Assembly (NCBI GenBank): GCA_017499595.2
Contig: CM039004.1
Location: 186,001 to 250,000 of the forward strand
Source: Psilocybe cubensis
Taxonomy: Eukaryota
Reading direction: 5' to 3'
Length of the DNA stretch: 64,000 bases
The notes under the pieces: model-generated
Told to the model about the DNA's origin: nothing
Seen by the model: the letters and a program-made list of their open reading frames with translations, nothing else
Databases searched by the model: none
In this document: positions 1 through 43,670 of the stretch, piece after piece
How the letters are laid out: each line of letters opens with the position of its first letter
How positions within the stretch are numbered: position 1 is the first letter of the stretch
Translations under genes and position numbers: made by a program

Positions 1-1831
1 CCTCTAGCTCTAGCTCTAACAGAACAACAACACTGAACAAGTCCGCGGAGACCGTATTTCATATTTTAAGTCTTGTATTATGTGTACATGTGAATGTGAA
101 TGTAACTGGAAGTCGGAAGGCGGAGGTAACACCAACACTCACACCAACACAGACGGCGATCACAAGGGAATGAACATGCAAGTAAATGCAACTACAACTT
201 GACCACATTGCCTCAAACATGTAAACATTTCAAATAAACTTTTATAAAATTATATATCAAAAGCTTGTGCAACAGCGAGTATATGAGTCAGCGAGTACAT
301 GAGTCTGTCAAACCCAAGGCAGACTCCAGGAAAACTCCAGGCAGACTCAAGGAAAACTTGTCACTCCAGGAGTCAGAACCGACCGTGACATTCAGACGCA
401 AACAAACAGACATATAAGGAAGAAGACAACACAAATACACAAACAAACGGCTAGATCATTAAAGCGTGGGAACTAACCTCGCCGTTCGCTTGACTTGCCA
501 ATCTAACACCCAACACAATGATCAATCTATTCCAACGTATGTCTCCTGGAGGGGGCGAGGGGATTTTGCTCGAGTGCGAGGTTGAGGTCGAGGTCGGAGT
601 CGAGGTCGGAGTCGGAGTTGAGGGAAGGTGTAAGGCCAAGCACACGGGCAAGGGACAGGGCAAGGGCAAGAAGGGTGGGGGCAATCGCGGGAACCTGAAT
701 TCTGGAAACACACTCGAACAACACCCAATGTACTAGTACATGTCCATTAGCCTCGCAGAATAAGAGCTCTAATATCTATATTGTACCACGCCACCATCAT
801 CAAAATGATATTAAATATTATGACTCTTGCCTTTCCCGCTTTTGTTTTTACCCTTTTCAAACGTCACTATCTTGCCGCGATAGTAGTAGTAATTATGTAC
901 TAATTAGCAGTAGCAATAGTAGAGTTTAGGTCAGTGCGGAAGATAGTCGTGCGTCGGCGCTACGACCGAGCTAGCTAGTAAAATCCAATTTCCACTTTCC
1001 AGTATTCCTTTACACCTATATCATTTAAGCATGTATATGGTAGTTATTTATCTTTTTTGAAGCTGTGCCTAGTTACACTGATGATGGTCACACATTCCAG
1101 GTTCGGGGAGAATGTATATTACTTATAATTATTGTTATTCCCAGTACGATGCAGACCCCCTCGCATTTACGAGCTTAAGCTTAAGCTCAAGGTCCGGTCT
1201 CTCGTTGGAATATAATATGCAATGCTAATAGTCAAAGGAGTGTCACTCGTGTCAACGGTAGATTAAATCTCAACAAGGCACTACTTCCAATTCTAATTCG
1301 AAATCAGACAGATCGACTGGAACCTGCGAACCGTCGCAAGCTGAATGTGTGTCGACGTCGGACGACAACACGGTCAGGGGTACCGGGTACCGAGAATCCT
1401 GTTGAGATTATAATATGGGAAACTGTAGTACACATGCTGCACAGCAGCTAATAGCTGCAACACAGACACAGACCAATTGAAGCCAATAAATAGCTGCTCC
1501 TAGTGCGCATAGCTGACATAATTTCCACTTGTGTTTGTTTGTACATCAAATAATTCAGAGTTTCTCAATCCAAATGTCCTGTCCTGTCCTGTCCTGATAC
1601 ATATCTATCAAACAATAGTCAATACCCAATAATCACTACCCAACAAGGAAAATAAGTAAAAGTAAACTCACATATCCAAAAAGGATTAGCGTCCATATAT
1701 CAATTCCAATTCCAACTCTCCCCACTCAGTCGGACAGATTGCGATGGAGATATACATATATCTATCTGATGTCGATGTCTTCCATCGCCGACCAGAAGCA
1801 GAACCAGAACCGGAACCAGAACCAGAAGTCA

Positions 1832-3754
1832 GACTCGACCAGCATGGAACTTGAATTGGAAGCACCCTCGACATGACACGCCAATGTCGAGCCAGTCGTC
1901 CTCTTCCCAGGTCAACCGGCCCGACTTGCATCCCCCCGAGAAGAAAGAGATAAAAGACAACATGAATTCCAAAATGGGCAAGCAAGTTGCTTGTTTAAAA
2001 TGGAAGAACAGTCAAACGTCGCCTCGATCATAGGGGTGCATAATGCTTATCAAGTGGCTGATATATAGTAGTAATAGTGGAGATGCAGGGGAGGTAATCG
2101 TTAATATTAAATAATATTTTTAATCAACAGTGATACCGACTCACCGAGCACCGACGAGTAACAACCGCGAATCTTCTGCGTCCTTCGTTACCATATCCGC
2201 ATCCGCATCCGCATCCGCAATCTGCGCGGCCGAGATATGTGCATTGGTCATTACTTTCCTTCTTTACATGTTCACTTCCATGATATGATCTCCAGACCCG
2301 TGCTGCTGGCTACTTACACTTCAATTACACTTCCAATTACATAGCGTAGAATAGGGTTAGGTATATTTATAACTGTTAGTGTTAGTGTTATGTCAAAGTC
2401 TCCTAAGTCTTCGGAGCGCGCTCAATTTGGATATCGAGGCTCAGAGCCGCTGAATTGTGCAAATGCCAAACGCTCGTCGGGGAGTTCAGTCCCGGTGGTA
2501 CTATGTTCACACTGATCAACGGTAGGTGGTATCAAAACATCACGCTGACCATGATTACTACTTGATTAAGTGAAAAAACAACCCGCTAACCAATTGCATC
2601 AGCATTTTTTGGCTGCATAAAACTATACATCCCAGTCACACGCCGCGCGCGCTCAACGACATCTACCGACAAAAATGTAACCCGGAGAGACTTTCACCGG
2701 ACCTTCAAATTAAAACCATTCTGCATTCCCGACAATGACAATAGCTTAGCTTGTTTTCTCATGACACAGGGCAGCGAAGCTAACCCACCTAACCCAGATC
2801 CACCCGCGCTATTGACGTGCCGTGCCACATCTGGATGCCCTATCACATACACACGTAGCGCGGAAGCACAGTGAAGCACGAATCCCAAAGCGTCAAGTAT
2901 GCATCGGTGACGCGAGGACTCTGACCTCTGACAAGGGGTAAGTAGATAGCTTATCAGACGTCGCATCCCCATCCTTCCCAGCCCACGAAAGAAAGCACCT
3001 TCTTGTTCGTTCCTGGACCGGGTGGAGCATCCTATCTCCTTTGTTTGTTGTTCGCAGGGATGGGTAATAGCCAGCACCATCTGATTAACAAGAAATATTC
3101 CTGGAAGAAAATCGTCGTTGTTAGTTTGAGCACACGCATGTTCCATGCCCATGTTCAACAATCAGGGTGAAAGGGTGAAAGGTTCCATGATGGTCAGATT
3201 TCGAATTTCCAACCTTACCCTACGTTTCAATTTCGAGTCTATGAGTACCCTCACTGAACTGACATGACATAATAGAGCTCTCCGAAGACAGAAGACAGAG
3301 GTTCCAGTTCAGCGGGCACACAGGCACATCCGAATCCGAATCCGAGGCGTTTGCGTTTGCCACCGCCACGACAGAACAGAACAGAACAGCGTCATTCGTA
3401 CACTCCTTACTCTTCCATCTTCATGTCATTCCGACCTTCAGCTTCGGGTGTGACTATATACAACCATATACAACTCACACGCGCATCGCTCAAAACACCC
3501 ACCTGTAATTTATATCTCCACAAACACACACCAGTTTCCAAACAAAGACACCCAGAAAATTACGGAGTACAATATTATACAAACACCAAACACGAAACAC
3601 GAAACAGATTAAAAACCTTACCGCCACCGGACTGATCTTCTACTTGTACGTTTCTACTGTCCTCCCTCCTAGACTCGAATACGTATGTATGTATGGGAAG
3701 TGATATCTGGAAGAGCATATGTATATGATCATGAGTAAGAGCCTCACGCTAACA
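1832..3754. repeat. A1: left terminal A segment; left part diverged, right part matches internal copies
   Basis: SNPs and indels versus 9671-10189 up to position 2352 (AATAGGG vs AACAGGG); no differences seen afterwards. Confidence 0.93.
2694..3152 (-). CDS. Possible orphan ORF (~152 aa from ATG, MGMEHACAQ...) in segment A; present in all 7 A copies
   Basis: Longest ORF of the unit and still open in the diverged A7 (54354-54818), where I count 4 synonymous and 3 non-synonymous changes. No recognisable domain. Confidence 0.2.
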   Translation of the reverse strand: MGMEHACAQTNNDDFLPGIFLVNQMVLAITHPCEQQTKEIGCSTRSRNEQEGAFFRGLGRMGMRRLISYLLTPCQRSESSRHRCILDALGFVLHCASALRVYVIGHPDVARHVNSAGGSGLGGLASLPCVMRKQAKLLSLSGMQNGFNLKVR

Positions 3755-6700
3755 GGCTTAGTACTTCGTAGTGCAGTTGAAAGTGAAAAAGCGGCGTTGT
3801 GTGTTAAAATCGGGGGAATGCGTGATGATAATTTCCAAATGTAGAGCGAGTTACCATATTTTGACGACCCTGAGTGAAAGAGATAGAAGTTTTTTCTTAA
3901 ATTTTGCTAGGTGAACTTGCATAGGTTCTCCCCGCCCGAAGGCCTGCCATATATTTTTCTATCTACAACAAACAAGGTGCCTAAAGAATCCTGTCATGTC
4001 GGCACCCTTCAAAGTTGATAGGAAGTCGGGAAGTTGTCATCGCGGAAACTCCTAATCTAGATGGGCAGTAACATAGCTTTCATTGTCACGGTACAAATGT
4101 TGCAACACGATACAGAATTGAACAGTGAAACTTACCTGCAAGTTTGCCTTGACGACACGCACCGCGATCGCCTCCAAGCACATGTTGTAGGTTGTATTGT
4201 GCACATACGTCTTTGGGATACCTGTGAACTTCCTGTCAGTCTCGCTGCAGCTCGATGTAAAAAGAACAAGCGCTCAACAACACATGCTGCTGGCAGAATA
4301 GTTGGACACGGACACAAAACATTGCTTGCGGGAACTTCAGAAACCAAAGTTCAAATTCTGCAAACGGAGAATGGTGAGAACACGCTACAGAATTGGACCA
4401 TACAACCTACGTGGACTCAATACCCGGCCGCGGGAACCTCAGAGCACAGAACATTGCTCGCGGGAACTCCAAAAATCGAATTTTGAAATCTGGCGACAGA
4501 GAACCTCTGAGCACAAAATGTTGCTCGCGGGAAGTCCAAAAAACCGGCTGCTGACAGAATAGTGAGGACACAATACAGAGTTGGGAAATAGCACCTACGT
4601 GGACTCGACAGCCGCGGGAACTTCAGAGCACAAAACATTGCTCGCGGGAACTCCAAAAAACCGAACATCGAATTCTGGTAACCGAATAGTGAGTACACAA
4701 GATGTAATTGGACAATGCCCGGCCAGAACATTGGTCCCAAAATACTGTTCAAGAGAATAGTGAGGAAACGACACGGAATTGGACAACGGCACCTACGTGG
4801 ACTTGACACCCAGCCCGGGGGAACACAATGGCCGTGAAAAAACATCGCTCGCGGGAGCTCCAAAAATCAATTTTTAAAATCTGCTGAGAGAATAGTGAGT
4901 ACACGATATGGAGTTGAGCAATGACACGTACGTGGACTCGACACCCAGGCCGCGGGAACTCCAAATATTGAATTTGAGCACACTGTGCGTGTCGGCGGAC
5001 GTCCAAATATCAAATATGGGTGGGGTGCTCGCCGGAGCTCCAAAAATGCTGTTCAAGAGAGTAGTGAGGACACAACACAGACTTGGACACCAACACCTAC
5101 CTGGACTCAACACCCAGGTCATGGGAACACAATGCCAGTGAAAAACATTGCTCGCGGGAGACCCAAAAATCAATTCTTAAATTCTGTTGAGAGAATAGTG
5201 AGTACACGATGCAGAGTTGGACAATGACACGTACGTGGACTCGACACCCAGGCCGCGGGAACTCCAAATATCGAATTTGAGTACACCGTGATGGCCTAGC
5301 AGTGTCGGCGGACGTCCAAATATCAAATTTGGGTGGGACAGCATCATGTAGCGGACTGGCATAAACTCGGGATACAATCCCTGGCAAAGGAAAAAAATCA
5401 AAGTCGACCTATATACCGCATATTCAAGCTCCGCTATCCCTGCCACAAACAAACCCAAATTCTTCTAGCTCTGATCAATTTCGCTCCTATCAAGGTATAC
5501 GTACATATCCCGCTCCAGCTCAATTTTCAGACCGTAGAATACTTCATCTTCAATTCAACCCTGAAGATACTTTGAATTCAGTCTACAAAACAAAATGACA
5601 CTCAACTTTACATCACAGACACGAGTTCGAATGAAGACAACGCTTCAAGATCAAAAATAACGCACAAGTCCTCAATAACGAAACCACGCCGCTAGCGAAT
5701 ATCGGCTACTAGTAAGCAATATCTGGATCTAAAACCCAGCCCGTCGGTGCCCACAAACCAATCGTGCGGTTTTCAGGGTCGAAAATCTGCCTTTGAATGA
5801 CGCAAGTCTATCAAATTCAGGCCCCAAATTGAGTTTCCGGCTATTTTAGGTATGGTTGAAAGCTCAATTCTAAGGATTAACTGTGGATGCGTGTGATTCT
5901 GATGCAATTCTCTGTTTGTTCAAGGTAAGATTCCAACTAAAAGTCTATGTCGCATTTTCGGACTCAAAATCCGTGATTGATCGCTCCCCAGCGATTATAC
6001 GTCACTAGGTACTATCTTATTTGTCTGTGTCGCCGGACGCCCACAAACAAGTTCACAACCCGAGCCAAATTCGGATTGCCATGCTAATTTAAATAGTGCC
6101 TACGTCCAGACGGGTAGAAAAACATGTTTAAACTCTGAAAACGGGTATATATAACGTACCTTGCCTGCTTTCCATAGCCGGGACCTGTCCAAAAATATAT
6201 TTAAAACTGACATTAACACTCGTCGATAGAACTCGAATGGCGGTTGTTGAAGCTCCTGGAAAACGGTAACATTGCATTCACTGCTAGAGAACAAGACAGG
6301 CTTATCTATACCAGTTTAGTTCATTAGGAGAGGTTGGAAACTACGCTACACAGACAGATCTTTGCATAGTAACCGTTTAAACACATTTCAAGCTCACCAA
6401 ATCATATAACGGATGAAAACAGCGAGCCAACAGTATACAATGAGCATACTTCACAAAGGTCACCGTGTCTGTACAAATTTGTGCACTCCAGACGCTCGTA
6501 AACTATCTAAATTAACATTCAAATCGAAATAACCCACTACACGGACCCACAACCACCACTAAAGACACCCGGAAACGGCTGGAATGAGGTACATACAGAG
6601 ATACCCCACCGATAGCATCACTAACCCACAAGCCAGACCTGCTCGCATGTCACATAGACCACATCCAACGCCACGAACCAACCTCCTCCTCCTCCCCATT

Positions 6701-6870
6701 TACACATCCACAAGCATCTCAACCCGCGTTCTTTTCGCCCCCTTCGCGTTTCAGACCCATTACGACACCCCTTACATACACGATCGAACTATCTGTCAGA
6801 AGAAAATGAGAGGAAGACGCGGTGAACTCGACGAACGTTGCTGTGTGCTGGCAGCACATACACGCTATTT
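3755..6870 (-). ncRNA. Putative spliced non-coding transcript, left arm of B (ends approximate)
   Basis: Minus-strand TATAAA at 6897-6902 followed by a CT-rich tract; many minus-strand GT..AG segments including six regular introns at 4358-5234. My manual splicing of 5380-4797 reaches stops. No expression data. Confidence 0.35.
4287..5335 (-). repeat. Degenerate tandem exon-intron repeat (~130-190 bp monomers, ~303-bp higher-order dimer); present in every B
   Basis: Recurring motifs GAATAGTGAG(T/G)ACAC, C(C/G)TACGTGGACTCGAC, GCCGCGGGAACTCC, AACATTGCTCGCGGGA. On the minus strand monomers contain a 51-53-nt GTA(C/G)GT...CTCAC...CAG intron-like segment (5184-5234, 5049-5100, 4881-4931, 4745-4796, 4548-4598, 4358-4410). 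Confidence 0.85.
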
Positions 6871-6896
6871 GCGCAGAGAACGCGGTTTTGTACGTG

Positions 6897-6902
6897 TTTA
6901 TA
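6897..6902 (-). promoter_or_regulatory. Putative TATA box of the leftward transcription unit
   Basis: CTCTATAAAC on the minus strand, followed ~80-110 nt downstream by TCTTCCTCTCATTTTCTTCT. Confidence 0.35.
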
Positions 6903-8046
6903 GAGTCAGAGGGGCTATATGGTAACTTGAGTGGTATCCGGATATCGTTGGGAGGTTGGTGAGGCCGTGGATTCGCGGTCGAGGGTTGTTTGTGCAAATG
7001 ATCCCTGCATGTTGAAATCGCCCGTTTCACTCGAAATATCGTATATCTGTGCGTTTATGGTGAATGTGGGTGATTGTACACACAATATATTTCGCCACTT
7101 GATGTTCGAGATTGAAAATGTCAAGTCAGTTCTCAAATTCATCGAAACAATATCCATACTCGCCTCTTCTCCTCCACCCCGAATCCACCGCTCTTCTCTC
7201 AAATTTCGAACCGGATTCATATCACCCCCTAATCTATGAATACCCACTAGTCTATCTCACGTACATACTCGCATAATCCGAAGCTCAAACACGAAAATTT
7301 TCATCCATCTCCCGAGCACCGAATTCAGTTCTCCAGCACTAGAGCACAAAAACCACGTACGAGTTCAATAAAGACGCAAATTAAGAATACACCGAATGCA
7401 CACTAACACGTTTCGGATGTTCAGATAGTGCTCCAGGTTTGAATTTTTGCAACACAACTCACCAAGTGTGCATGATCCTCGGATGTCTCTCCCCGTCCCA
7501 TTCTTCCGAAAGAATGGCATTTTCAAACGACTTTGTTGTCAAGGGTTCTATTCGGGTGATACGTAATAGTGAACGGTGTTTTGAAAATGTTGGATCGAGC
7601 GGTGTCTTGACAAAAGCTAGATGTCGATGTTATGTATATTTCACTGAAATGCATTGTACGTACGGATTCAACGCGATGGCAATGACATACCGAGTAGTAG
7701 CAGAGTGAATAATTCAAATCTTGCAGCAGAGTGGCACTGTACTCGATAAAGCTGGAAGAAAGTTGACATTGCAAGAAATTCCATGTTTGAATCCAAACCG
7801 AAACGAAATGTCCATCAAACACACCGAAACAAAATGTCCAAATCAAACACACCAAAAACACATCTATTCACAGTTCCAAAAGGTTTAACGACAGAAGCAA
7901 GCCGTACATACCCTCGGCTAGCACTCGCTTCGCATTGAACTAGCAAAAACTCATTCGTAGATCCTCAAACTCGGACCCTGCAAAGCACGGTACAACCCGA
8001 AATTGCATAGCGTACCGGTGTACGTACAGCGGCGTGTTTCTGGGAC

Positions 8047-8135
8047 TATAAAAGGGTGCGTGAATCGACTCACTTTTTCCCATTCCACTCCCACTCCCCT
8101 CTCAGGGGTCCTCTCCTCTCTCCTCCCCTGTTCTG
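8047..8135 (+). promoter_or_regulatory. Putative core promoter: TATAAAA plus CT-rich box
   Basis: GGGACTATAAAAGGG at 8042-8056, then a ~60-nt pyrimidine tract (CACTTTTTCCCATTCCACTCCCACTCCCCT...CTCTCCTCTCTCCTCCCCT) and a canonical first intron at 8155-8219; typical fungal Pol II layout. Confidence 0.6.
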
Positions 8136-9660
8136 CACGGTGTCGGTTGTTCAGGTAAGCTATTCAGCTGCGCTTTGACACCGCGACTGACGGTGTTTTA
8201 CCGCCTGTTTGTGTGCCAGGTCATCGACTCGACTGACGAGCAGAGCACAGCAGACGTGTCCTGCACACGGTGAGTGAACTGCTTGGGTCTGTTGAGACGA
8301 TGCTGAATGGTGGTGTCGTGGTCTAGACGCGTTGTAGCGACATATTCAGTGAGTACGAGTGAAAATGTGTGACTCGCCTCATCCTGACGCGTCCCCCTTG
8401 CCCCCATTGCCACAGGTCATTGTGCTGCTCATGGGTTGACGTGTCGCGCTGGAACGTGAGTACGAACCCTACACACACGTACATAACCACTCCCATAGTG
8501 CTGCAAGACCCTTCTCGTGTCGTTTCACGCTCTCTGCCGCGTTGTTGAGAACTCGATTGAGGCCGGGCTAGAATGAGAGGTAGATGTGAGTACGAGCCTT
8601 ACACACATGTACATGACCACTCACCGGACACTTCCATTGTGCTTGTCGTTCCGCCCTCTCTGCGCCGTGGCGCCATGGTCTGTGAGTACAAGTAAAAACA
8701 AGATAGTCACGCCACGCTGAAGCTCTTTTCCTCACCCGATGACTGCTCGCCGTATACAAGAGGACCCGCCCATTGCACAGCAAGACCCTTACACCACCAC
8801 CCGTCATTTCGCCCTGTCTGCCGATTTGTGCATCGTGAGATGCGCCATAGCGCCATGTCCTGTGAGTACATATGAAAATGGCCTGGTCGCGTCATGCTGA
8901 AGCACCCTTCTTCACCCCCGCTATCACAGGTTGCCACCCATAGCACTGGACCTCGAGGCAACAGTGAGTACTAAATCCCAAACACATATAGATGTCCGCT
9001 CACCGTGTGTAAAAGGACCATTTTGTTGTGATGCAAAGAGACCTTCCCCGCCCATCGCTTTGCCCGTTGGATGCGCCGCGGCGCTGTGTTCAGTGAGTAA
9101 AGTGAATATAAAACCCCTTCACTGAATCACCTCGTCTCGACCTAGTGTCCAGTGTTGTGTTGAGGCTAGGCATATTGGTGAGTAAGAGGACGACGGCCTG
9201 GCCAACCCCTCGTTTATGACCTTGTAAGCTGAATAGATGGTGTCCAGTGTTGTGCAGGAGGGTGTAATGGATGTGTCGGGGTTAGGCATGGTGGTGAGTA
9301 AGACTACATAACCACTCACCGTGTGTAAGAGGATGACGTCCCTCATTTTTGACCTCGTACACTGCCAAAGTGCTGTCCCACCCCGCTCGCCTCTAACAGC
9401 CCCGCACAACCACTCGTTTTCGACCTCGTATGCTTGGTGTCTAGTGTTGGGCAGGAGGATATAAGTGATGTGTTGATGTTAGGCATAGTGGTGAGTAAGA
9501 CTACATAACTGCTCACCGTGTGCAAGAGGATGACGTCCCTCATTTTTGACCTTGTACACTGCCAGAGTGCTGTCCCACCCCGCTCGCCTCTGATAAGACC
9601 CCACGGACCAGACGGAAAGTTGTAGGCATGGTACGTGATGATTATGCGTCGGGAAACAGT
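8075..9660 (+). ncRNA. Putative multi-intron non-coding transcript, right arm of B (~12 donor sites, mostly short exons)
   Basis: Donor GTAAGC at 8155 and GTGAGT at 8270, 8349, 8456, 8586, 8682, 8862, 8964, 9093, 9178, 9294, 9491. Well-formed introns 8155-8219, 8270-8326, 8349-8415, 8862-8929, 8964-9015, 9093-9145, 9178-9236. First spliced ATG reads ATG GGT TGA. Confidence 0.5.
9238..9591 (+). repeat. Two-copy 197-bp direct tandem duplication within the right arm of B
   Basis: GTGGTGAGTAAGACTACATAAC...GCTGTCCCACCCCGCTCGCCTCT occurs at ~9291-9394 and ~9488-9591. Confidence 0.9.
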
Positions 9661-9670
9661 GGTTAGACTC

Positions 9671-12600
9671 GACTCGACCAGCATGGAACTTGAATTGGAA
9701 GCACCCTCGACATGACACGCCAATGTCGAGTCAGTCATCCTGGCCAACGGTCCGACTTGCAAGATAAAAGACAACATGAATTCCATAATTGGAAAGCAAG
9801 TTGCTTGTTTAAAATGGAAGAACAGTCAAACGTCGCCTCGATCATAGGGGTGCATAATACTTATCAAGTGGCTGATATATAGTAGTAATAGTGGAGATAC
9901 AGGGGAGGTAATCATTAATATCATTATTAATCAACAGTGAGACCTACTCACCGAGCACCGACGAGTAACAACCGCGAATCTTCTGCGTCCTTCGTTACCA
10001 TATCCGCATCCGCATCCGCATCCAAAATCTGCGCGGCCGAGATATGTGCATGTGTATGCACTCGACACTCGGTTGGTGTTGGTGAGTCATTACTTTTACT
10101 TTCCTTCTTTACATGTTCACTTTGACCTCCAGACCCGTGCTGCTGGCCACTTACACTTCAATTACACTTCCAATTACATAGCGTAGAACAGGGTTAGGTA
10201 TATTTATAACTGTTAGTGTTAGTGTTATGTCAAAGTCTCCTAAGTCTTCGGAGCGCGCTCAATTTGGATATCGAGGCTCAGAGCCGCTGAATTGTGCAAA
10301 TGCCAAACGCTCGTCGGGGAGTTCAGTCCCGGTGGTACTATGTTCACACTGATCAACGGTAGGTGGTATCAAAACATCACGCTGACCATGATTACTACTT
10401 GATTAAGTGAAAAAACAACCCGCTAACCAATTGCATCAGCATTTTTTGGCTGCATAAAACTATACATCCCAGTCACACGCCGCGCGCGCTCAACGACATC
10501 TACCGACAAAAATGTAACCCGGAGAGACTTTCACCGGACCTTCAAATTAAAACCATTCTGCATTCCCGACAATGACAATAGCTTAGCTTGTTTTCTCATG
10601 ACACAGGGCAGCGAAGCTAACCCACCTAACCCAGATCCACCCGCGCTATTGACGTGCCGTGCCACATCTGGATGCCCTATCACATACACACGTAGCGCGG
10701 AAGCACAGTGAAGCACGAATCCCAAAGCGTCAAGTATGCATCGGTGACGCGAGGACTCTGACCTCTGACAAGGGGTAAGTAGATAGCTTATCAGACGTCG
10801 CATCCCCATCCTTCCCAGCCCACGAAAGAAAGCACCTTCTTGTTCGTTCCTGGACCGGGTGGAGCATCCTATCTCCTTTGTTTGTTGTTCGCAGGGATGG
10901 GTAATAGCCAGCACCATCTGATTAACAAGAAATATTCCTGGAAGAAAATCGTCGTTGTTAGTTTGAGCACACGCATGTTCCATGCCCATGTTCAACAATC
11001 AGGGTGAAAGGGTGAAAGGTTCCATGATGGTCAGATTTCGAATTTCCAACCTTACCCTACGTTTCAATTTCGAGTCTATGAGTACCCTCACTGAACTGAC
11101 ATGACATAATAGAGCTCTCCGAAGACAGAAGACAGAGGTTCCAGTTCAGCGGGCACACAGGCACATCCGAATCCGAATCCGAGGCGTTTGCGTTTGCCAC
11201 CGCCACGACAGAACAGAACAGAACAGCGTCATTCGTACACTCCTTACTCTTCCATCTTCATGTCATTCCGACCTTCAGCTTCGGGTGTGACTATATACAA
11301 CCATATACAACTCACACGCGCATCGCTCAAAACACCCACCTGTAATTTATATCTCCACAAACACACACCAGTTTCCAAACAAAGACACCCAGAAAATTAC
11401 GGAGTACAATATTATACAAACACCAAACACGAAACACGAAACAGATTAAAAACCTTACCGCCACCGGACTGATCTTCTACTTGTACGTTTCTACTGTCCT
11501 CCCTCCTAGACTCGAATACGTATGTATGTATGGGAAGTGATATCTGGAAGAGCATATGTATATGATCATGAGTAAGAGCCTCACGCTAACAGGCTTAGTA
11601 CTTCGTAGTGCAGTTGAAAGTGAAAAAGCGGCGTTGTGTGTTAAAATCGGGGGAATGCGTGATGATAATTTCCAAATGTAGAGCGAGTTACCATATTTTG
11701 ACGACCCTGAGTGAAAGAGATAGAAGTTTTTTCTTAAATTTTGCTAGGTGAACTTGCATAGGTTCTCCCCGCCCGAAGGCCTGCCATATATTTTTCTATC
11801 TACAACAAACAAGGTGCCTAAAGAATCCTGTCATGTCGGCACCCTTCAAAGTTGATAGGAAGTCGGGAAGTTGTCATCGCGGAAACTCCTAATCTAGATG
11901 GGCAGTAACATAGCTTTCATTGTCACGGTACAAATGTTGCAACACGATACAGAATTGAACAGTGAAACTTACCTGCAAGTTTGCCTTGACGACACGCACC
12001 GCGATCGCCTCCAAGCACATGTTGTAGGTTGTATTGTGCACATACGTCTTTGGGATACCTGTGAACTTCCTGTCAGTCTCGCTGCAGCTCGATGTAAAAA
12101 GAACAAGCGCTCAACAACACATGCTGCTGGCAGAATAGTTGGACACGGACACAAAACATTGCTTGCGGGAACTTCAGAAACCAAAGTTCAAATTCTGCAA
12201 ACGGAGAATGGTGAGAACACGCTACAGAATTGGACCATACAACCTACGTGGACTCAATACCCGGCCGCGGGAACCTCAGAGCACAGAACATTGCTCGCGG
12301 GAACTCCAAAAATCGAATTTTGAAATCTGGCGACAGAGAACCTCTGAGCACAAAATGTTGCTCGCGGGAAGTCCAAAAAACCGGCTGCTGACAGAATAGT
12401 GAGGACACAATACAGAGTTGGGAAATAGCACCTACGTGGACTCGACAGCCGCGGGAACTTCAGAGCACAAAACATTGCTCGCGGGAACTCCAAAAAACCG
12501 AACATCGAATTCTGGTAACCGAATAGTGAGTACACAAGATGTAATTGGACAATGCCCGGCCAGAACATTGGTCCCAAAATACTGTTCAAGAGAATAGTGA

Positions 12601-17507: not shown

Positions 17508-20500
17508 GACTCGACCAGCATGGAACTTGAATTGGAAGCACCCTCGACATGACACGCCAATGTCGAGTCAGTCATCCTGGCCAACGGTCCGACTTGCAAG
17601 ATAAAAGACAACATGAATTCCATAATTGGAAAGCAAGTTGCTTGTTTAAAATGGAAGAACAGTCAAACGTCGCCTCGATCATAGGGGTGCATAATACTTA
17701 TCAAGTGGCTGATATATAGTAGTAATAGTGGAGATACAGGGGAGGTAATCATTAATATCATTATTAATCAACAGTGAGACCTACTCACCGAGCACCGACG
17801 AGTAACAACCGCGAATCTTCTGCGTCCTTCGTTACCATATCCGCATCCGCATCCGCATCCAAAATCTGCGCGGCCGAGATATGTGCATGTGTATGCACTC
17901 GACACTCGGTTGGTGTTGGTGAGTCATTACTTTTACTTTCCTTCTTTACATGTTCACTTTGACCTCCAGACCCGTGCTGCTGGCCACTTACACTTCAATT
18001 ACACTTCCAATTACATAGCGTAGAACAGGGTTAGGTATATTTATAACTGTTAGTGTTAGTGTTATGTCAAAGTCTCCTAAGTCTTCGGAGCGCGCTCAAT
18101 TTGGATATCGAGGCTCAGAGCCGCTGAATTGTGCAAATGCCAAACGCTCGTCGGGGAGTTCAGTCCCGGTGGTACTATGTTCACACTGATCAACGGTAGG
18201 TGGTATCAAAACATCACGCTGACCATGATTACTACTTGATTAAGTGAAAAAACAACCCGCTAACCAATTGCATCAGCATTTTTTGGCTGCATAAAACTAT
18301 ACATCCCAGTCACACGCCGCGCGCGCTCAACGACATCTACCGACAAAAATGTAACCCGGAGAGACTTTCACCGGACCTTCAAATTAAAACCATTCTGCAT
18401 TCCCGACAATGACAATAGCTTAGCTTGTTTTCTCATGACACAGGGCAGCGAAGCTAACCCACCTAACCCAGATCCACCCGCGCTATTGACGTGCCGTGCC
18501 ACATCTGGATGCCCTATCACATACACACGTAGCGCGGAAGCACAGTGAAGCACGAATCCCAAAGCGTCAAGTATGCATCGGTGACGCGAGGACTCTGACC
18601 TCTGACAAGGGGTAAGTAGATAGCTTATCAGACGTCGCATCCCCATCCTTCCCAGCCCACGAAAGAAAGCACCTTCTTGTTCGTTCCTGGACCGGGTGGA
18701 GCATCCTATCTCCTTTGTTTGTTGTTCGCAGGGATGGGTAATAGCCAGCACCATCTGATTAACAAGAAATATTCCTGGAAGAAAATCGTCGTTGTTAGTT
18801 TGAGCACACGCATGTTCCATGCCCATGTTCAACAATCAGGGTGAAAGGGTGAAAGGTTCCATGATGGTCAGATTTCGAATTTCCAACCTTACCCTACGTT
18901 TCAATTTCGAGTCTATGAGTACCCTCACTGAACTGACATGACATAATAGAGCTCTCCGAAGACAGAAGACAGAGGTTCCAGTTCAGCGGGCACACAGGCA
19001 CATCCGAATCCGAATCCGAGGCGTTTGCGTTTGCCACCGCCACGACAGAACAGAACAGAACAGCGTCATTCGTACACTCCTTACTCTTCCATCTTCATGT
19101 CATTCCGACCTTCAGCTTCGGGTGTGACTATATACAACCATATACAACTCACACGCGCATCGCTCAAAACACCCACCTGTAATTTATATCTCCACAAACA
19201 CACACCAGTTTCCAAACAAAGACACCCAGAAAATTACGGAGTACAATATTATACAAACACCAAACACGAAACACGAAACAGATTAAAAACCTTACCGCCA
19301 CCGGACTGATCTTCTACTTGTACGTTTCTACTGTCCTCCCTCCTAGACTCGAATACGTATGTATGTATGGGAAGTGATATCTGGAAGAGCATATGTATAT
19401 GATCATGAGTAAGAGCCTCACGCTAACAGGCTTAGTACTTCGTAGTGCAGTTGAAAGTGAAAAAGCGGCGTTGTGTGTTAAAATCGGGGGAATGCGTGAT
19501 GATAATTTCCAAATGTAGAGCGAGTTACCATATTTTGACGACCCTGAGTGAAAGAGATAGAAGTTTTTTCTTAAATTTTGCTAGGTGAACTTGCATAGGT
19601 TCTCCCCGCCCGAAGGCCTGCCATATATTTTTCTATCTACAACAAACAAGGTGCCTAAAGAATCCTGTCATGTCGGCACCCTTCAAAGTTGATAGGAAGT
19701 CGGGAAGTTGTCATCGCGGAAACTCCTAATCTAGATGGGCAGTAACATAGCTTTCATTGTCACGGTACAAATGTTGCAACACGATACAGAATTGAACAGT
19801 GAAACTTACCTGCAAGTTTGCCTTGACGACACGCACCGCGATCGCCTCCAAGCACATGTTGTAGGTTGTATTGTGCACATACGTCTTTGGGATACCTGTG
19901 AACTTCCTGTCAGTCTCGCTGCAGCTCGATGTAAAAAGAACAAGCGCTCAACAACACATGCTGCTGGCAGAATAGTTGGACACGGACACAAAACATTGCT
20001 TGCGGGAACTTCAGAAACCAAAGTTCAAATTCTGCAAACGGAGAATGGTGAGAACACGCTACAGAATTGGACCATACAACCTACGTGGACTCAATACCCG
20101 GCCGCGGGAACCTCAGAGCACAGAACATTGCTCGCGGGAACTCCAAAAATCGAATTTTGAAATCTGGCGACAGAGAACCTCTGAGCACAAAATGTTGCTC
20201 GCGGGAAGTCCAAAAAACCGGCTGCTGACAGAATAGTGAGGACACAATACAGAGTTGGGAAATAGCACCTACGTGGACTCGACAGCCGCGGGAACTTCAG
20301 AGCACAAAACATTGCTCGCGGGAACTCCAAAAAACCGAACATCGAATTCTGGTAACCGAATAGTGAGTACACAAGATGTAATTGGACAATGCCCGGCCAG
20401 AACATTGGTCCCAAAATACTGTTCAAGAGAATAGTGAGGAAACGACACGGAATTGGACAACGGCACCTACGTGGACTTGACACCCAGCCCGGGGGAACAC

Positions 20501-25344: not shown

Positions 25345-28300
25345 GACTCGACCAGCATGGAACTTGAATTGGAAGCACCCTCGACATGACACGCCAATGT
25401 CGAGTCAGTCATCCTGGCCAACGGTCCGACTTGCAAGATAAAAGACAACATGAATTCCATAATTGGAAAGCAAGTTGCTTGTTTAAAATGGAAGAACAGT
25501 CAAACGTCGCCTCGATCATAGGGGTGCATAATACTTATCAAGTGGCTGATATATAGTAGTAATAGTGGAGATACAGGGGAGGTAATCATTAATATCATTA
25601 TTAATCAACAGTGAGACCTACTCACCGAGCACCGACGAGTAACAACCGCGAATCTTCTGCGTCCTTCGTTACCATATCCGCATCCGCATCCGCATCCAAA
25701 ATCTGCGCGGCCGAGATATGTGCATGTGTATGCACTCGACACTCGGTTGGTGTTGGTGAGTCATTACTTTTACTTTCCTTCTTTACATGTTCACTTTGAC
25801 CTCCAGACCCGTGCTGCTGGCCACTTACACTTCAATTACACTTCCAATTACATAGCGTAGAACAGGGTTAGGTATATTTATAACTGTTAGTGTTAGTGTT
25901 ATGTCAAAGTCTCCTAAGTCTTCGGAGCGCGCTCAATTTGGATATCGAGGCTCAGAGCCGCTGAATTGTGCAAATGCCAAACGCTCGTCGGGGAGTTCAG
26001 TCCCGGTGGTACTATGTTCACACTGATCAACGGTAGGTGGTATCAAAACATCACGCTGACCATGATTACTACTTGATTAAGTGAAAAAACAACCCGCTAA
26101 CCAATTGCATCAGCATTTTTTGGCTGCATAAAACTATACATCCCAGTCACACGCCGCGCGCGCTCAACGACATCTACCGACAAAAATGTAACCCGGAGAG
26201 ACTTTCACCGGACCTTCAAATTAAAACCATTCTGCATTCCCGACAATGACAATAGCTTAGCTTGTTTTCTCATGACACAGGGCAGCGAAGCTAACCCACC
26301 TAACCCAGATCCACCCGCGCTATTGACGTGCCGTGCCACATCTGGATGCCCTATCACATACACACGTAGCGCGGAAGCACAGTGAAGCACGAATCCCAAA
26401 GCGTCAAGTATGCATCGGTGACGCGAGGACTCTGACCTCTGACAAGGGGTAAGTAGATAGCTTATCAGACGTCGCATCCCCATCCTTCCCAGCCCACGAA
26501 AGAAAGCACCTTCTTGTTCGTTCCTGGACCGGGTGGAGCATCCTATCTCCTTTGTTTGTTGTTCGCAGGGATGGGTAATAGCCAGCACCATCTGATTAAC
26601 AAGAAATATTCCTGGAAGAAAATCGTCGTTGTTAGTTTGAGCACACGCATGTTCCATGCCCATGTTCAACAATCAGGGTGAAAGGGTGAAAGGTTCCATG
26701 ATGGTCAGATTTCGAATTTCCAACCTTACCCTACGTTTCAATTTCGAGTCTATGAGTACCCTCACTGAACTGACATGACATAATAGAGCTCTCCGAAGAC
26801 AGAAGACAGAGGTTCCAGTTCAGCGGGCACACAGGCACATCCGAATCCGAATCCGAGGCGTTTGCGTTTGCCACCGCCACGACAGAACAGAACAGAACAG
26901 CGTCATTCGTACACTCCTTACTCTTCCATCTTCATGTCATTCCGACCTTCAGCTTCGGGTGTGACTATATACAACCATATACAACTCACACGCGCATCGC
27001 TCAAAACACCCACCTGTAATTTATATCTCCACAAACACACACCAGTTTCCAAACAAAGACACCCAGAAAATTACGGAGTACAATATTATACAAACACCAA
27101 ACACGAAACACGAAACAGATTAAAAACCTTACCGCCACCGGACTGATCTTCTACTTGTACGTTTCTACTGTCCTCCCTCCTAGACTCGAATACGTATGTA
27201 TGTATGGGAAGTGATATCTGGAAGAGCATATGTATATGATCATGAGTAAGAGCCTCACGCTAACAGGCTTAGTACTTCGTAGTGCAGTTGAAAGTGAAAA
27301 AGCGGCGTTGTGTGTTAAAATCGGGGGAATGCGTGATGATAATTTCCAAATGTAGAGCGAGTTACCATATTTTGACGACCCTGAGTGAAAGAGATAGAAG
27401 TTTTTTCTTAAATTTTGCTAGGTGAACTTGCATAGGTTCTCCCCGCCCGAAGGCCTGCCATATATTTTTCTATCTACAACAAACAAGGTGCCTAAAGAAT
27501 CCTGTCATGTCGGCACCCTTCAAAGTTGATAGGAAGTCGGGAAGTTGTCATCGCGGAAACTCCTAATCTAGATGGGCAGTAACATAGCTTTCATTGTCAC
27601 GGTACAAATGTTGCAACACGATACAGAATTGAACAGTGAAACTTACCTGCAAGTTTGCCTTGACGACACGCACCGCGATCGCCTCCAAGCACATGTTGTA
27701 GGTTGTATTGTGCACATACGTCTTTGGGATACCTGTGAACTTCCTGTCAGTCTCGCTGCAGCTCGATGTAAAAAGAACAAGCGCTCAACAACACATGCTG
27801 CTGGCAGAATAGTTGGACACGGACACAAAACATTGCTTGCGGGAACTTCAGAAACCAAAGTTCAAATTCTGCAAACGGAGAATGGTGAGAACACGCTACA
27901 GAATTGGACCATACAACCTACGTGGACTCAATACCCGGCCGCGGGAACCTCAGAGCACAGAACATTGCTCGCGGGAACTCCAAAAATCGAATTTTGAAAT
28001 CTGGCGACAGAGAACCTCTGAGCACAAAATGTTGCTCGCGGGAAGTCCAAAAAACCGGCTGCTGACAGAATAGTGAGGACACAATACAGAGTTGGGAAAT
28101 AGCACCTACGTGGACTCGACAGCCGCGGGAACTTCAGAGCACAAAACATTGCTCGCGGGAACTCCAAAAAACCGAACATCGAATTCTGGTAACCGAATAG
28201 TGAGTACACAAGATGTAATTGGACAATGCCCGGCCAGAACATTGGTCCCAAAATACTGTTCAAGAGAATAGTGAGGAAACGACACGGAATTGGACAACGG

Positions 28301-33181: not shown

Positions 33182-36100
33182 GACTCGACCAGCATGGAAC
33201 TTGAATTGGAAGCACCCTCGACATGACACGCCAATGTCGAGTCAGTCATCCTGGCCAACGGTCCGACTTGCAAGATAAAAGACAACATGAATTCCATAAT
33301 TGGAAAGCAAGTTGCTTGTTTAAAATGGAAGAACAGTCAAACGTCGCCTCGATCATAGGGGTGCATAATACTTATCAAGTGGCTGATATATAGTAGTAAT
33401 AGTGGAGATACAGGGGAGGTAATCATTAATATCATTATTAATCAACAGTGAGACCTACTCACCGAGCACCGACGAGTAACAACCGCGAATCTTCTGCGTC
33501 CTTCGTTACCATATCCGCATCCGCATCCGCATCCAAAATCTGCGCGGCCGAGATATGTGCATGTGTATGCACTCGACACTCGGTTGGTGTTGGTGAGTCA
33601 TTACTTTTACTTTCCTTCTTTACATGTTCACTTTGACCTCCAGACCCGTGCTGCTGGCCACTTACACTTCAATTACACTTCCAATTACATAGCGTAGAAC
33701 AGGGTTAGGTATATTTATAACTGTTAGTGTTAGTGTTATGTCAAAGTCTCCTAAGTCTTCGGAGCGCGCTCAATTTGGATATCGAGGCTCAGAGCCGCTG
33801 AATTGTGCAAATGCCAAACGCTCGTCGGGGAGTTCAGTCCCGGTGGTACTATGTTCACACTGATCAACGGTAGGTGGTATCAAAACATCACGCTGACCAT
33901 GATTACTACTTGATTAAGTGAAAAAACAACCCGCTAACCAATTGCATCAGCATTTTTTGGCTGCATAAAACTATACATCCCAGTCACACGCCGCGCGCGC
34001 TCAACGACATCTACCGACAAAAATGTAACCCGGAGAGACTTTCACCGGACCTTCAAATTAAAACCATTCTGCATTCCCGACAATGACAATAGCTTAGCTT
34101 GTTTTCTCATGACACAGGGCAGCGAAGCTAACCCACCTAACCCAGATCCACCCGCGCTATTGACGTGCCGTGCCACATCTGGATGCCCTATCACATACAC
34201 ACGTAGCGCGGAAGCACAGTGAAGCACGAATCCCAAAGCGTCAAGTATGCATCGGTGACGCGAGGACTCTGACCTCTGACAAGGGGTAAGTAGATAGCTT
34301 ATCAGACGTCGCATCCCCATCCTTCCCAGCCCACGAAAGAAAGCACCTTCTTGTTCGTTCCTGGACCGGGTGGAGCATCCTATCTCCTTTGTTTGTTGTT
34401 CGCAGGGATGGGTAATAGCCAGCACCATCTGATTAACAAGAAATATTCCTGGAAGAAAATCGTCGTTGTTAGTTTGAGCACACGCATGTTCCATGCCCAT
34501 GTTCAACAATCAGGGTGAAAGGGTGAAAGGTTCCATGATGGTCAGATTTCGAATTTCCAACCTTACCCTACGTTTCAATTTCGAGTCTATGAGTACCCTC
34601 ACTGAACTGACATGACATAATAGAGCTCTCCGAAGACAGAAGACAGAGGTTCCAGTTCAGCGGGCACACAGGCACATCCGAATCCGAATCCGAGGCGTTT
34701 GCGTTTGCCACCGCCACGACAGAACAGAACAGAACAGCGTCATTCGTACACTCCTTACTCTTCCATCTTCATGTCATTCCGACCTTCAGCTTCGGGTGTG
34801 ACTATATACAACCATATACAACTCACACGCGCATCGCTCAAAACACCCACCTGTAATTTATATCTCCACAAACACACACCAGTTTCCAAACAAAGACACC
34901 CAGAAAATTACGGAGTACAATATTATACAAACACCAAACACGAAACACGAAACAGATTAAAAACCTTACCGCCACCGGACTGATCTTCTACTTGTACGTT
35001 TCTACTGTCCTCCCTCCTAGACTCGAATACGTATGTATGTATGGGAAGTGATATCTGGAAGAGCATATGTATATGATCATGAGTAAGAGCCTCACGCTAA
35101 CAGGCTTAGTACTTCGTAGTGCAGTTGAAAGTGAAAAAGCGGCGTTGTGTGTTAAAATCGGGGGAATGCGTGATGATAATTTCCAAATGTAGAGCGAGTT
35201 ACCATATTTTGACGACCCTGAGTGAAAGAGATAGAAGTTTTTTCTTAAATTTTGCTAGGTGAACTTGCATAGGTTCTCCCCGCCCGAAGGCCTGCCATAT
35301 ATTTTTCTATCTACAACAAACAAGGTGCCTAAAGAATCCTGTCATGTCGGCACCCTTCAAAGTTGATAGGAAGTCGGGAAGTTGTCATCGCGGAAACTCC
35401 TAATCTAGATGGGCAGTAACATAGCTTTCATTGTCACGGTACAAATGTTGCAACACGATACAGAATTGAACAGTGAAACTTACCTGCAAGTTTGCCTTGA
35501 CGACACGCACCGCGATCGCCTCCAAGCACATGTTGTAGGTTGTATTGTGCACATACGTCTTTGGGATACCTGTGAACTTCCTGTCAGTCTCGCTGCAGCT
35601 CGATGTAAAAAGAACAAGCGCTCAACAACACATGCTGCTGGCAGAATAGTTGGACACGGACACAAAACATTGCTTGCGGGAACTTCAGAAACCAAAGTTC
35701 AAATTCTGCAAACGGAGAATGGTGAGAACACGCTACAGAATTGGACCATACAACCTACGTGGACTCAATACCCGGCCGCGGGAACCTCAGAGCACAGAAC
35801 ATTGCTCGCGGGAACTCCAAAAATCGAATTTTGAAATCTGGCGACAGAGAACCTCTGAGCACAAAATGTTGCTCGCGGGAAGTCCAAAAAACCGGCTGCT
35901 GACAGAATAGTGAGGACACAATACAGAGTTGGGAAATAGCACCTACGTGGACTCGACAGCCGCGGGAACTTCAGAGCACAAAACATTGCTCGCGGGAACT
36001 CCAAAAAACCGAACATCGAATTCTGGTAACCGAATAGTGAGTACACAAGATGTAATTGGACAATGCCCGGCCAGAACATTGGTCCCAAAATACTGTTCAA

Positions 36101-39036
36101 GAGAATAGTGAGGAAACGACACGGAATTGGACAACGGCACCTACGTGGACTTGACACCCAGCCCGGGGGAACACAATGGCCGTGAAAAAACATCGCTCGC
36201 GGGAGCTCCAAAAATCAATTTTTAAAATCTGCTGAGAGAATAGTGAGTACACGATATGGAGTTGAGCAATGACACGTACGTGGACTCGACACCCAGGCCG
36301 CGGGAACTCCAAATATTGAATTTGAGCACACTGTGCGTGTCGGCGGACGTCCAAATATCAAATATGGGTGGGGTGCTCGCCGGAGCTCCAAAAATGCTGT
36401 TCAAGAGAGTAGTGAGGACACAACACAGACTTGGACACCAACACCTACCTGGACTCAACACCCAGGTCATGGGAACACAATGCCAGTGAAAAACATTGCT
36501 CGCGGGAGACCCAAAAATCAATTCTTAAATTCTGTTGAGAGAATAGTGAGTACACGATGCAGAGTTGGACAATGACACGTACGTGGACTCGACACCCAGG
36601 CCGCGGGAACTCCAAATATCGAATTTGAGTACACCGTGATGGCCTAGCAGTGTCGGCGGACGTCCAAATATCAAATTTGGGTGGGACAGCATCATGTAGC
36701 GGACTGGCATAAACTCGGGATACAATCCCTGGCAAAGGAAAAAAATCAAAGTCGACCTATATACCGCATATTCAAGCTCCGCTATCCCTGCCACAAACAA
36801 ACCCAAATTCTTCTAGCTCTGATCAATTTCGCTCCTATCAAGGTATACGTACATATCCCGCTCCAGCTCAATTTTCAGACCGTAGAATACTTCATCTTCA
36901 ATTCAACCCTGAAGATACTTTGAATTCAGTCTACAAAACAAAATGACACTCAACTTTACATCACAGACACGAGTTCGAATGAAGACAACGCTTCAAGATC
37001 AAAAATAACGCACAAGTCCTCAATAACGAAACCACGCCGCTAGCGAATATCGGCTACTAGTAAGCAATATCTGGATCTAAAACCCAGCCCGTCGGTGCCC
37101 ACAAACCAATCGTGCGGTTTTCAGGGTCGAAAATCTGCCTTTGAATGACGCAAGTCTATCAAATTCAGGCCCCAAATTGAGTTTCCGGCTATTTTAGGTA
37201 TGGTTGAAAGCTCAATTCTAAGGATTAACTGTGGATGCGTGTGATTCTGATGCAATTCTCTGTTTGTTCAAGGTAAGATTCCAACTAAAAGTCTATGTCG
37301 CATTTTCGGACTCAAAATCCGTGATTGATCGCTCCCCAGCGATTATACGTCACTAGGTACTATCTTATTTGTCTGTGTCGCCGGACGCCCACAAACAAGT
37401 TCACAACCCGAGCCAAATTCGGATTGCCATGCTAATTTAAATAGTGCCTACGTCCAGACGGGTAGAAAAACATGTTTAAACTCTGAAAACGGGTATATAT
37501 AACGTACCTTGCCTGCTTTCCATAGCCGGGACCTGTCCAAAAATATATTTAAAACTGACATTAACACTCGTCGATAGAACTCGAATGGCGGTTGTTGAAG
37601 CTCCTGGAAAACGGTAACATTGCATTCACTGCTAGAGAACAAGACAGGCTTATCTATACCAGTTTAGTTCATTAGGAGAGGTTGGAAACTACGCTACACA
37701 GACAGATCTTTGCATAGTAACCGTTTAAACACATTTCAAGCTCACCAAATCATATAACGGATGAAAACAGCGAGCCAACAGTATACAATGAGCATACTTC
37801 ACAAAGGTCACCGTGTCTGTACAAATTTGTGCACTCCAGACGCTCGTAAACTATCTAAATTAACATTCAAATCGAAATAACCCACTACACGGACCCACAA
37901 CCACCACTAAAGACACCCGGAAACGGCTGGAATGAGGTACATACAGAGATACCCCACCGATAGCATCACTAACCCACAAGCCAGACCTGCTCGCATGTCA
38001 CATAGACCACATCCAACGCCACGAACCAACCTCCTCCTCCTCCCCATTTACACATCCACAAGCATCTCAACCCGCGTTCTTTTCGCCCCCTTCGCGTTTC
38101 AGACCCATTACGACACCCCTTACATACACGATCGAACTATCTGTCAGAAGAAAATGAGAGGAAGACGCGGTGAACTCGACGAACGTTGCTGTGTGCTGGC
38201 AGCACATACACGCTATTTGCGCAGAGAACGCGGTTTTGTACGTGTTTATAGAGTCAGAGGGGCTATATGGTAACTTGAGTGGTATCCGGATATCGTTGGG
38301 AGGTTGGTGAGGCCGTGGATTCGCGGTCGAGGGTTGTTTGTGCAAATGATCCCTGCATGTTGAAATCGCCCGTTTCACTCGAAATATCGTATATCTGTGC
38401 GTTTATGGTGAATGTGGGTGATTGTACACACAATATATTTCGCCACTTGATGTTCGAGATTGAAAATGTCAAGTCAGTTCTCAAATTCATCGAAACAATA
38501 TCCATACTCGCCTCTTCTCCTCCACCCCGAATCCACCGCTCTTCTCTCAAATTTCGAACCGGATTCATATCACCCCCTAATCTATGAATACCCACTAGTC
38601 TATCTCACGTACATACTCGCATAATCCGAAGCTCAAACACGAAAATTTTCATCCATCTCCCGAGCACCGAATTCAGTTCTCCAGCACTAGAGCACAAAAA
38701 CCACGTACGAGTTCAATAAAGACGCAAATTAAGAATACACCGAATGCACACTAACACGTTTCGGATGTTCAGATAGTGCTCCAGGTTTGAATTTTTGCAA
38801 CACAACTCACCAAGTGTGCATGATCCTCGGATGTCTCTCCCCGTCCCATTCTTCCGAAAGAATGGCATTTTCAAACGACTTTGTTGTCAAGGGTTCTATT
38901 CGGGTGATACGTAATAGTGAACGGTGTTTTGAAAATGTTGGATCGAGCGGTGTCTTGACAAAAGCTAGATGTCGATGTTATGTATATTTCACTGAAATGC
39001 ATTGTACGTACGGATTCAACGCGATGGCAATGACAT

Positions 39037-39217
39037 TGTTGGAATGATAGTCGGCGAGCGACTTGGTCGCTAAGTCGTTATCTTCCTCTTGTAGTTTATC
39101 TTATCATATTTTTTCTAGATTATTCTACTATAGGTTCCGTAGTTACTGTAGGTACAACCGTGTAGCTACGTCGTGAATCTACATCTTTTACCACCACTGC
39201 GCATTATACTTACAACA
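39037..39217 (+). repeat. 5' LTR (181 bp)
   Basis: TGTTGGAATG...ACTTACAACA; no difference seen from the 3' LTR. Confidence 0.98.
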
Positions 39218-39229
39218 GGTTATGGGCCC
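39218..39229 (+). promoter_or_regulatory. Primer-binding site complementary to the anticodon arm of initiator tRNA-Met (half-tRNA priming)
   Basis: GGTTATGGGCCC directly after the LTR; same PBS type as Drosophila copia. Confidence 0.85.
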
Positions 39230-39312
39230 CGAGAGGTCATAACTAAAGCTCGCTTTGTTCTAAACTCGTTCTATTCTTATCGATCTATATCTAAACTTGT
39301 ACTCGACGTCAA

Positions 39313-43482: not shown

Positions 43483-43489
43483 GGGGGAG
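43481..43489 (+). other. Polypurine tract
   Basis: AAGGGGGAG directly before the 3' LTR, overlapping the pol stop codon. Confidence 0.9.
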
Positions 43490-43670
43490 TGTTGGAATGA
43501 TAGTCGGCGAGCGACTTGGTCGCTAAGTCGTTATCTTCCTCTTGTAGTTTATCTTATCATATTTTTTCTAGATTATTCTACTATAGGTTCCGTAGTTACT
43601 GTAGGTACAACCGTGTAGCTACGTCGTGAATCTACATCTTTTACCACCACTGCGCATTATACTTACAACA
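43490..43670 (+). repeat. 3' LTR (181 bp)
   Basis: Identical to 39037-39217 by eye. Confidence 0.98.

Follow-up and report, generated by a model that had tools for sequence, protein, structure and literature searches.

Organization of the tandem array

The window analysed here, a 64,000-nucleotide stretch of the Psilocybe cubensis genome (contig CM039004.1, positions 186,001 to 250,000 of the forward strand), contains a tandem array at positions 1832 to 55417 of the window. Self-megablast of the window revealed a period of 7,837 bp, arranged head to tail, in which a segment A of about 1.92 kb alternates with a segment B of 5,916 bp (about 5.9 kb). The layout is A1-B-(A-B)x5-A7, with seven A copies and six B copies, which corresponds to A(BA)n with one extra A. 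Tandem Repeats Finder, whose longest period is 500, returned nothing for the window, and self-BLAST was used instead. The first A copy (A1) lies at 1832-3754 and is followed by the first of the six B segments at 3755-9670. The five internal A copies lie at 9671-11591 (A2), 17508-19428 (A3), 25345-27265 (A4), 33182-35102 (A5) and 45658-47578 (A6), and the last copy (A7) at 53494-55417. The period is interrupted once, by a 4,634-bp insert in the fifth B that was found in the same self-comparison.

Homology of A1 to the internal copies ends on the left at about 1832, beside a microsatellite of the CCAGAA type, and homology of A7 to them ends on the right at 55417. Comparison of the unit with the flanks found no unit-like sequence in either of them, and no A-like segment was found within B. 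Recognizable flanking genes occur on the right side only, where Pfam identified WSC-domain exons on the plus strand (58072-58866) and a glycolipid-transfer-protein (GLTP) exon on the minus strand (62306-62572); the 1.8-kb left flank contains no protein family match in Pfam.

Judged by comparison with known families, the unit appears to be non-coding and shows no sign of a gene. None of the 52 stop-to-stop open reading frames (ORFs) of at least 60 aa in the unit matched Pfam above the cut-off (one sub-threshold DUF2805 match was disregarded), and a homologue search for the longest ORF of A (minus strand, 2697-3161), which covered proteins of 85-272 aa, found none. Rfam yielded no match at the gathering score in the whole window and none at E values up to 1 in the interval 1700-9800, while the unit contains no tRNA gene and no inverted repeats were found in it. 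A promoter and terminator scan of a 496-bp block inside A, described below, gave nothing above shuffled sequences, the models being bacterial and the host a fungus. In our reading, the array is a neutral, unstable, macrosatellite-like copy-number variant, with no function indicated.

Although a 7.8-kb unit is typical of fungal ribosomal DNA, identification of the unit as a ribosomal DNA repeat was rejected, since it has no 18S, 5.8S or 28S sequence (zero Rfam matches). Segment B includes two degenerate minisatellite-like zones that recur in each unit, at approximately 4313-5337 and 8456-9591, with periods of about 135-300 bp and 130-200 bp, respectively, and 70-88% identity. Short ORF-like frames in these zones are kept by the chance of repetition.

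A copia element in the fifth unit and the age of the copies

The insert in the fifth B is a copia-type LTR retrotransposon on the plus strand (39037-43670) that shows every feature expected of such an element. Its 181-bp LTRs are 100% identical and have TG..CA ends, it is bordered by a 5-bp target duplication (GACAT at 39032-39036 and 43671-43675), and its frame is open over 1,395 codons with gag, integrase and RVT_2 domains (Pfam). The element is apparently active, and it probably landed in a single unit after the amplification.

With the copia insert removed, the interval 2353 to 54012, which amounts to about 47 kb of copies, shows a single difference among its six units, a 1-bp indel at 52622 in the sixth unit. 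Because six units differ by one 1-bp indel, either the amplification is very recent or the copies were homogenised by the assembly; both the count of six units and their perfect identity are as given by the assembly alone. This 53-kb region is flagged here as one whose assembly copy number merits checking.

A single switch block in the end copies

A MAFFT alignment was made of all seven A copies, each extended by 600 bp on the upstream and 800 bp on the downstream side. Not one column varies among the five internal A copies, A3 to A6 being identical to A2. A1 differs from them by 31 events, comprising 26 substitutions and 5 indels (8, 17, 7, 38 and 8 bp), every one of which lies at or to the left of 2352, where the last is found; the left 521 bp of A1 (1832-2352) show 88.6% identity to the internal copies, and from 2353 onward A1 is identical to them. 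Between A7 and the internal copies there are 26 events (24 substitutions and 2 small indels), all of them from 54509 onward (the equivalent of 2849 in A1), where the first is found, and A7 equals the internal copies up to 54508. At all A1-informative sites A7 carries the internal allele, and at all A7-informative sites A1 does.

Because A1 events end at 2352 and A7 events start at 2849, a 496-bp block (2353-2848 in A1) is identical in all seven A copies; its equivalents lie at 10190-10685, 18027-18522, 25864-26359, 33701-34196, 46177-46672 and 54013-54508. The probability that the 57 events would be ordered in this way by chance is 8e-17, and no identical run of at least 496 columns arose in 200,000 simulations with 57 events placed at random over 1,964 columns. 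An earlier note on this DNA, made by inspection of the sequence, had described exactly this pattern: A1 differing solely to the left of 2353, A7 differing solely from 54509, a block of about 496 bp common to all copies, and five internal copies that combine the left part of A7 with the right part of A1 and switch in the same interval. The alignment bears out each of these points, the differences being neither scattered along A1 and A7 nor placed at different breakpoints among the internal copies.

Divergence between A1 and A7 is patchy: the left side has 31 events within 521 bp, the right side 26 within 906 bp, and 16 of these 26 fall within 3561-3661. A second long run of identity between A1 and A7 spans 369 bp (3192-3560), and the identical runs of 496, 369 and 132 bp lie amid stretches at 11-16% divergence.

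Two sequence types, here called p and c, thus meet in one 496-bp block at both ends of the array. The p type is that of the internal A copies, which show it throughout, left and right of the block, and are contiguous with B. The c type is that of A1 to the left of the block and of A7 to the right of it, and it is also the type of the single A in strains without B.

Alleles of other isolates

A sequence search with positions 1-9670 listed 14 public runs, 10 of which contain any part of this interval. The shares of sampled words found were 0.89-0.94 in six runs, 0.22-0.27 in three and 0.06 in one. Among the 10 runs with any part, B occurs in 6, which come from two of three studies; this result concerns presence only and not copy number. 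Positions 1-9670 were then compared at 90% likeness with the raw reads of one run (X11) and with contigs of three others (X7, X8 and X9), alleles of these strains being read from 40 of 190 variant rows and 23 of 95 contig pieces. X7 contributed 12 pieces and is informative for the right part of A alone.

B is essentially absent from X11, X8 and X9, and X7 has scraps of it only; a second dikaryon allele may be hidden. In X11, the summed depth per bin is 6-35 in the flank and 15-27 in A (1939-3876), so that A, with the same depth as the flank, is single-copy in this run. Over 18 bins of B the X11 depth averages about 1.6, with nine bins at zero and a maximum of 10.7 at 7753-8075. Contigs of X8 and X9 cover the interval from about 110 or 430 to 3718, beyond which they contain short B islands only. 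Since B is essentially missing in these strains, the array is a presence/absence polymorphism.

The single A of these strains is of the c type on both sides. To the left of the block, X8 differs from A1 by three mismatches and no gaps over 1873-2186, and both X8 and X9 are identical to A1 over 2178-2800, a span in which the 38-bp and 8-bp indels are in their A1 state and which takes in the sites at 2217-2352. To the right, all four runs have the A7 allele at 3561, 3578, 3579, 3588 and 3601, and X11, the only run covered there, also has it at 3160 and 3182; the other strains' single A therefore carries the A7 allele at 7 of the 7 A7-specific sites among the variant rows listed. No internal-type allele was seen at the listed right-hand sites in any run (at 3561 in X11, 22 of 22 and 14 of 14 reads are A7-type), and X11 has no p-type right part of A and no B anywhere at 90% likeness or above. 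A putative empty-site allele, a single A with A1-left and A7-right sequence and without B, is accordingly found in X8; X9 shows the same from 2173, and X11 shows it by depth and A7 alleles. The earlier note had set this allele against a single-unit A1-B-A7 allele as the two states to look for in other strains. The former was found; the latter was seen in none of the four runs compared (X7, X8, X9 and X11), none of which has B at single-copy level, X7 being uninformative.

The c-type alleles differ among themselves in the left part of A. A1-left shares changes with X8 at 2100, 2119 and 2134 and at the 7-bp indel, while X9 and X11 keep the p state, with the internal-type bases at all three positions in both runs and the 7-base gap in X9. 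At 1892 the internal-type state is found in X11 and X8. Because A1-left groups with X8 against X9 and X11, the c-type parts of the array haplotype are nested within the diversity of B-less alleles, as would be expected for a young derived haplotype. These data fit a simple tree in which all c alleles (A1-left, A7-right and the single A of other strains) form one group with the p type outside it, A1-left being nearest to X8. X9 bears another organism label, yet over about 1.3 kb of flank it shows 31 mismatches versus 28 for the conspecific X8, and it is thus no usable outgroup.

At 3223 and 3251, all seven copies in the window have C and T, where X8, X9 and X11 read T and C. Either the latter is a derived state common to the B-less strains, or the 3192-3560 interval of A7 was converted by its internal neighbours. 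X8 shows 28 mismatches and 24 gap positions against the window over 426-1708 and only three mismatches over the next 930 bp (1873-2800), a contrast that implies either that recombination once occurred near 1710-1870 or that the block is strongly conserved.

Origin of the array

The earlier note offered two histories with the same outcome: amplification of an ancestral A1-B-A7 by exchange between its diverged repeats, and integration of a 7.8-kb circle with its own copy of A (A') into a chromosomal A, followed by amplification. Both still fit, and the B-less alleles do not decide between them. As the note had foreseen, pop-out of an A1-B-A7 allele would leave the same product as an original single A, so that a B-less allele of the c type is predicted by insertion and by pop-out alike. 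Break repair templated by a B-bearing homologue would be a third route to the same outcome and needs no circle.

We tentatively prefer, at somewhat less than an even chance, a history in which a lone A without B is the ancestral state and a single event brought A'-B into a c-type allele. The mechanism that we infer begins with one homologous exchange inside the 496-bp block, which joined p-type A'-B to c-type DNA and produced a c/p-A, a B and a p/c-A in succession. Unequal exchange between whole units, either between sister chromatids or at meiosis, would then raise their number to six. This step would be very quick, since whole units offer 7.8 kb of perfect homology, a substrate far superior to the 496-bp block. 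The copia element would have landed in one unit thereafter. Youth of the array is indicated by the single 1-bp indel in about 47 kb and by the identity of the copia LTRs.

The entry itself may have taken either of two routes, both of which would place the two switches at one spot. In the simpler one, break repair, a broken end would invade an A' copy of a homologue or donor with B, which serves as template; synthesis would proceed through B, and the new strand would anneal at the next A'. We regard this route as possible, if on the unlikely side. Entry by a Campbell-type single crossover of a 7.8-kb circle is unlikely. Under either route, the internal copies would be the donor's own repeat and A1 and A7 would be the chimeras. 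The statement of the earlier note that all internal A copies are hybrids is therefore right as to the mosaic, but its wording holds only if B was flanked by diverged repeats from the start; circle integration makes the end copies the hybrids. The note's single founding event follows from the identity of the copies, an identity that later homogenisation or assembly polishing would also give.

Insertion requires no deletion in the other strains, and we lean towards it as the reading that fits both the nesting of A1-left and the lack of p-type DNA elsewhere. Against it, the c-type B-less allele is equally expected from pop-out deletion of A1-B-A7; a donor has to be postulated, and neither a free circle nor a haplotype whose ends are purely p-type was seen; and the patchy divergence between c and p, with its 369-bp identical run, is what long co-residence in cis with gene conversion would be expected to leave.

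A more specific version of this history, which we consider quite unlikely, holds that the p-type DNA (B with its own A) is foreign to the usual gene pool of the species, having arrived by introgression or horizontal transfer, and that a Campbell-type crossover in the 496-bp block brought it into the chromosome in the form of a 7.8-kb circle, after which it was amplified. The reading is prompted by the fact that p-type DNA is missing from the other conspecific genomes examined and falls outside all A alleles seen. If true, nature would here have produced in a mushroom the equivalent of an integrated plasmid, with both chimeric junctions and the empty site preserved.

The main alternative, to which we give a substantial probability well short of even, is that old, diverged direct repeats (alpha, now A1, and beta, now A7) flanked B, that one unequal crossover of beta with alpha in the block yielded the first hybrid internal copy, that subsequent exchange between units built the array, and that the B-less alleles are pop-outs between alpha and beta. 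In a variant, the array is older and its interior copies were homogenised while the edges escaped. The A(BA)n layout with a junction copy made of A7-left and A1-right is the textbook product of such an exchange, and no unseen donor is required. Old repeats in cis with gene conversion also account for the patchy divergence of A1 and A7, pop-out between 1.9-kb direct repeats would be easy and recurrent, and the B-less alleles have exactly the alpha-left and beta-right composition predicted. However, three of the four runs (X8, X9 and X11) are clearly B-less, X7 has scraps only, and the single-unit A1-B-A7 state is missing among them. One ancient pop-out does not fit the grouping of A1-left with X8 at 2100-2134, so that several pop-outs or additional recombination would be needed. 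In addition, an 11% divergence, taken as a measure of the repeats' age, would mean that B has long been at this site, yet B is missing from every other sampled allele.

Two separate meiotic crossovers between a pure p-type array haplotype and common B-less c-type alleles, one in the first A and one in the last, would give the same mosaic, an explanation that we find improbable. Recombination near the locus is evident from X8, which is identical to A1 over 2178-2800 and divergent over 426-1708, and the block is the longest stretch of perfect identity between c and p. Nevertheless, two switches within the same 496 bp would be a coincidence that the single-event histories yield at no cost, and no pure p-type haplotype was seen.

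A partial assembly artefact, with real unit and junctions but with copy number and identity produced by the assembler or by polishing (for example, through a graph loop), is very improbable. The one 1-bp difference in about 47 kb, known from the assembly alone, is what such an artefact would leave. On the other hand, the copia insert has a target-site duplication with unit sequence on both sides, the ends of the array are distinct and anchored in unique flanks, and B is found in six runs of two studies (as presence only, not copy number).

A transposon-driven origin, with A as the long terminal repeat of a non-autonomous A-B-A element turned into multimers through LTR-LTR exchange or cDNA recombination, or the array as a Helitron-like rolling-circle concatemer, is scarcely credible. 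In its favour, ..AACA closes the A copies, and 11 bp ahead of the point where homology starts the internal copies carry a TG that itself follows a short purine-rich run. Against it, there is by eye no target-site duplication (ACCAG before A1, CGAAT after A7) and no TGG-type primer-binding site after A (B starts GGCTTAG), TG is lacking at the equivalent place of A1, all 52 unit ORFs of at least 60 aa are without a gag, pol, Rep or helicase match, inverted repeats are lacking, and A is single-copy in X11 and so not a dispersed family. Both readings, an LTR for A and a Helitron for the unit, were rejected.

Comparison with known systems

Tandem amplification by unequal exchange between direct repeats is known from the amplifiable units of DNA in Streptomyces. 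Like products of non-allelic homologous recombination (NAHR), the present array has the A(BA)n form with n+1 repeats, a chimeric junction repeat and a single switch in the longest identical stretch, as well as near-identical copies whose number varies between strains. Unlike in those cases, the repeats here are of considerable length (1.9 kb) and, beyond the block, strongly diverged; the unit is without a recognizable gene, so that no selected amplification is evident, and a single-unit precursor was not found in the four runs compared. An amplified unit of the 'repeat + unit + repeat' form is described in PMC8831618.

Single-crossover integration of circular DNA is just as classical a source of such a structure. 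Campbell-type ('ends-in') integration is familiar from the integrative transformation of yeasts and filamentous fungi, where it is associated with gap repair and tandem multicopy inserts. The structure of this locus is what that process predicts: an insert between two chimeric copies of the homology with both switches at one place, a place that carries the recipient's sequence if a gap has been repaired; an 'empty' allele of A1-left and A7-right; and a tandem of insert plus homology. The difference is that the event here would be a natural one with a non-coding insert, and that neither a circle nor a donor locus was seen. Re-insertion of extrachromosomal circular DNA (eccDNA) in a fungus is mentioned in PMC9694575. 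Homologue-templated repair would yield the same product as Campbell integration without a circle.

Macrosatellites, such as human D4Z4, are tandem arrays of kilobase units with copy-number polymorphism. The array resembles them in its kilobase-sized unit, head-to-tail arrangement and near-identical copies, and in a presence or copy number that differs between individuals; it differs in having six units only, in being wholly absent from other strains, and in diverged end repeats that still record its joining to the chromosome. Arrays of the form A-B-A-B-A with one repeat common to neighbours are known for LTR elements, and tandem multimers with common LTRs arise by recombination of Ty1 cDNA. 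The present array shares with these the alternation of repeat and internal segments and a recombinational origin, whereas its A has no target duplication, primer-binding site or coding partner and is single-copy elsewhere.

The locus adds no new mechanism; it is a well-preserved case of a known recombination-driven event in non-coding DNA. No description of such an array in Psilocybe was found in literature searches that included 'Psilocybe cubensis' with 'tandem repeat', as judged from the listings. Its biological weight is modest because the amplified DNA has no recognizable gene. As a record of amplification it is unusually complete, combining chimeric ends, a switch interval, near-identical units, a dated copia marker and a B-less allele. 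It also provides a natural case in which strain-specific fungal arrays derived from old flanking repeats can be weighed against DNA that enters by homologous integration, with an instability that can be measured.

B-like islands and the left-border microsatellite

Short islands of B occur in the B-less strains at roughly single-copy depth (3844-3895, 6686-6840, 7288-7316 and 7987-8036). In X8, several of them keep their order on contigs whose depths agree (about 21), including one of 5 kb. These islands hint at a strongly diverged B-like locus elsewhere in the B-less genomes. Strings from the loose ends of the other strains' pieces were sought in the window and none was found; because these ends match nothing there, the B islands of other strains sit in contexts foreign to the window.

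The CCAGAA-type microsatellite at 1792-1830 lies exactly at the left border of A1. Many X11 reads break at it, and in other strains a 36-bp piece of it recurs in several unrelated contigs at raised depth (108 in X8).
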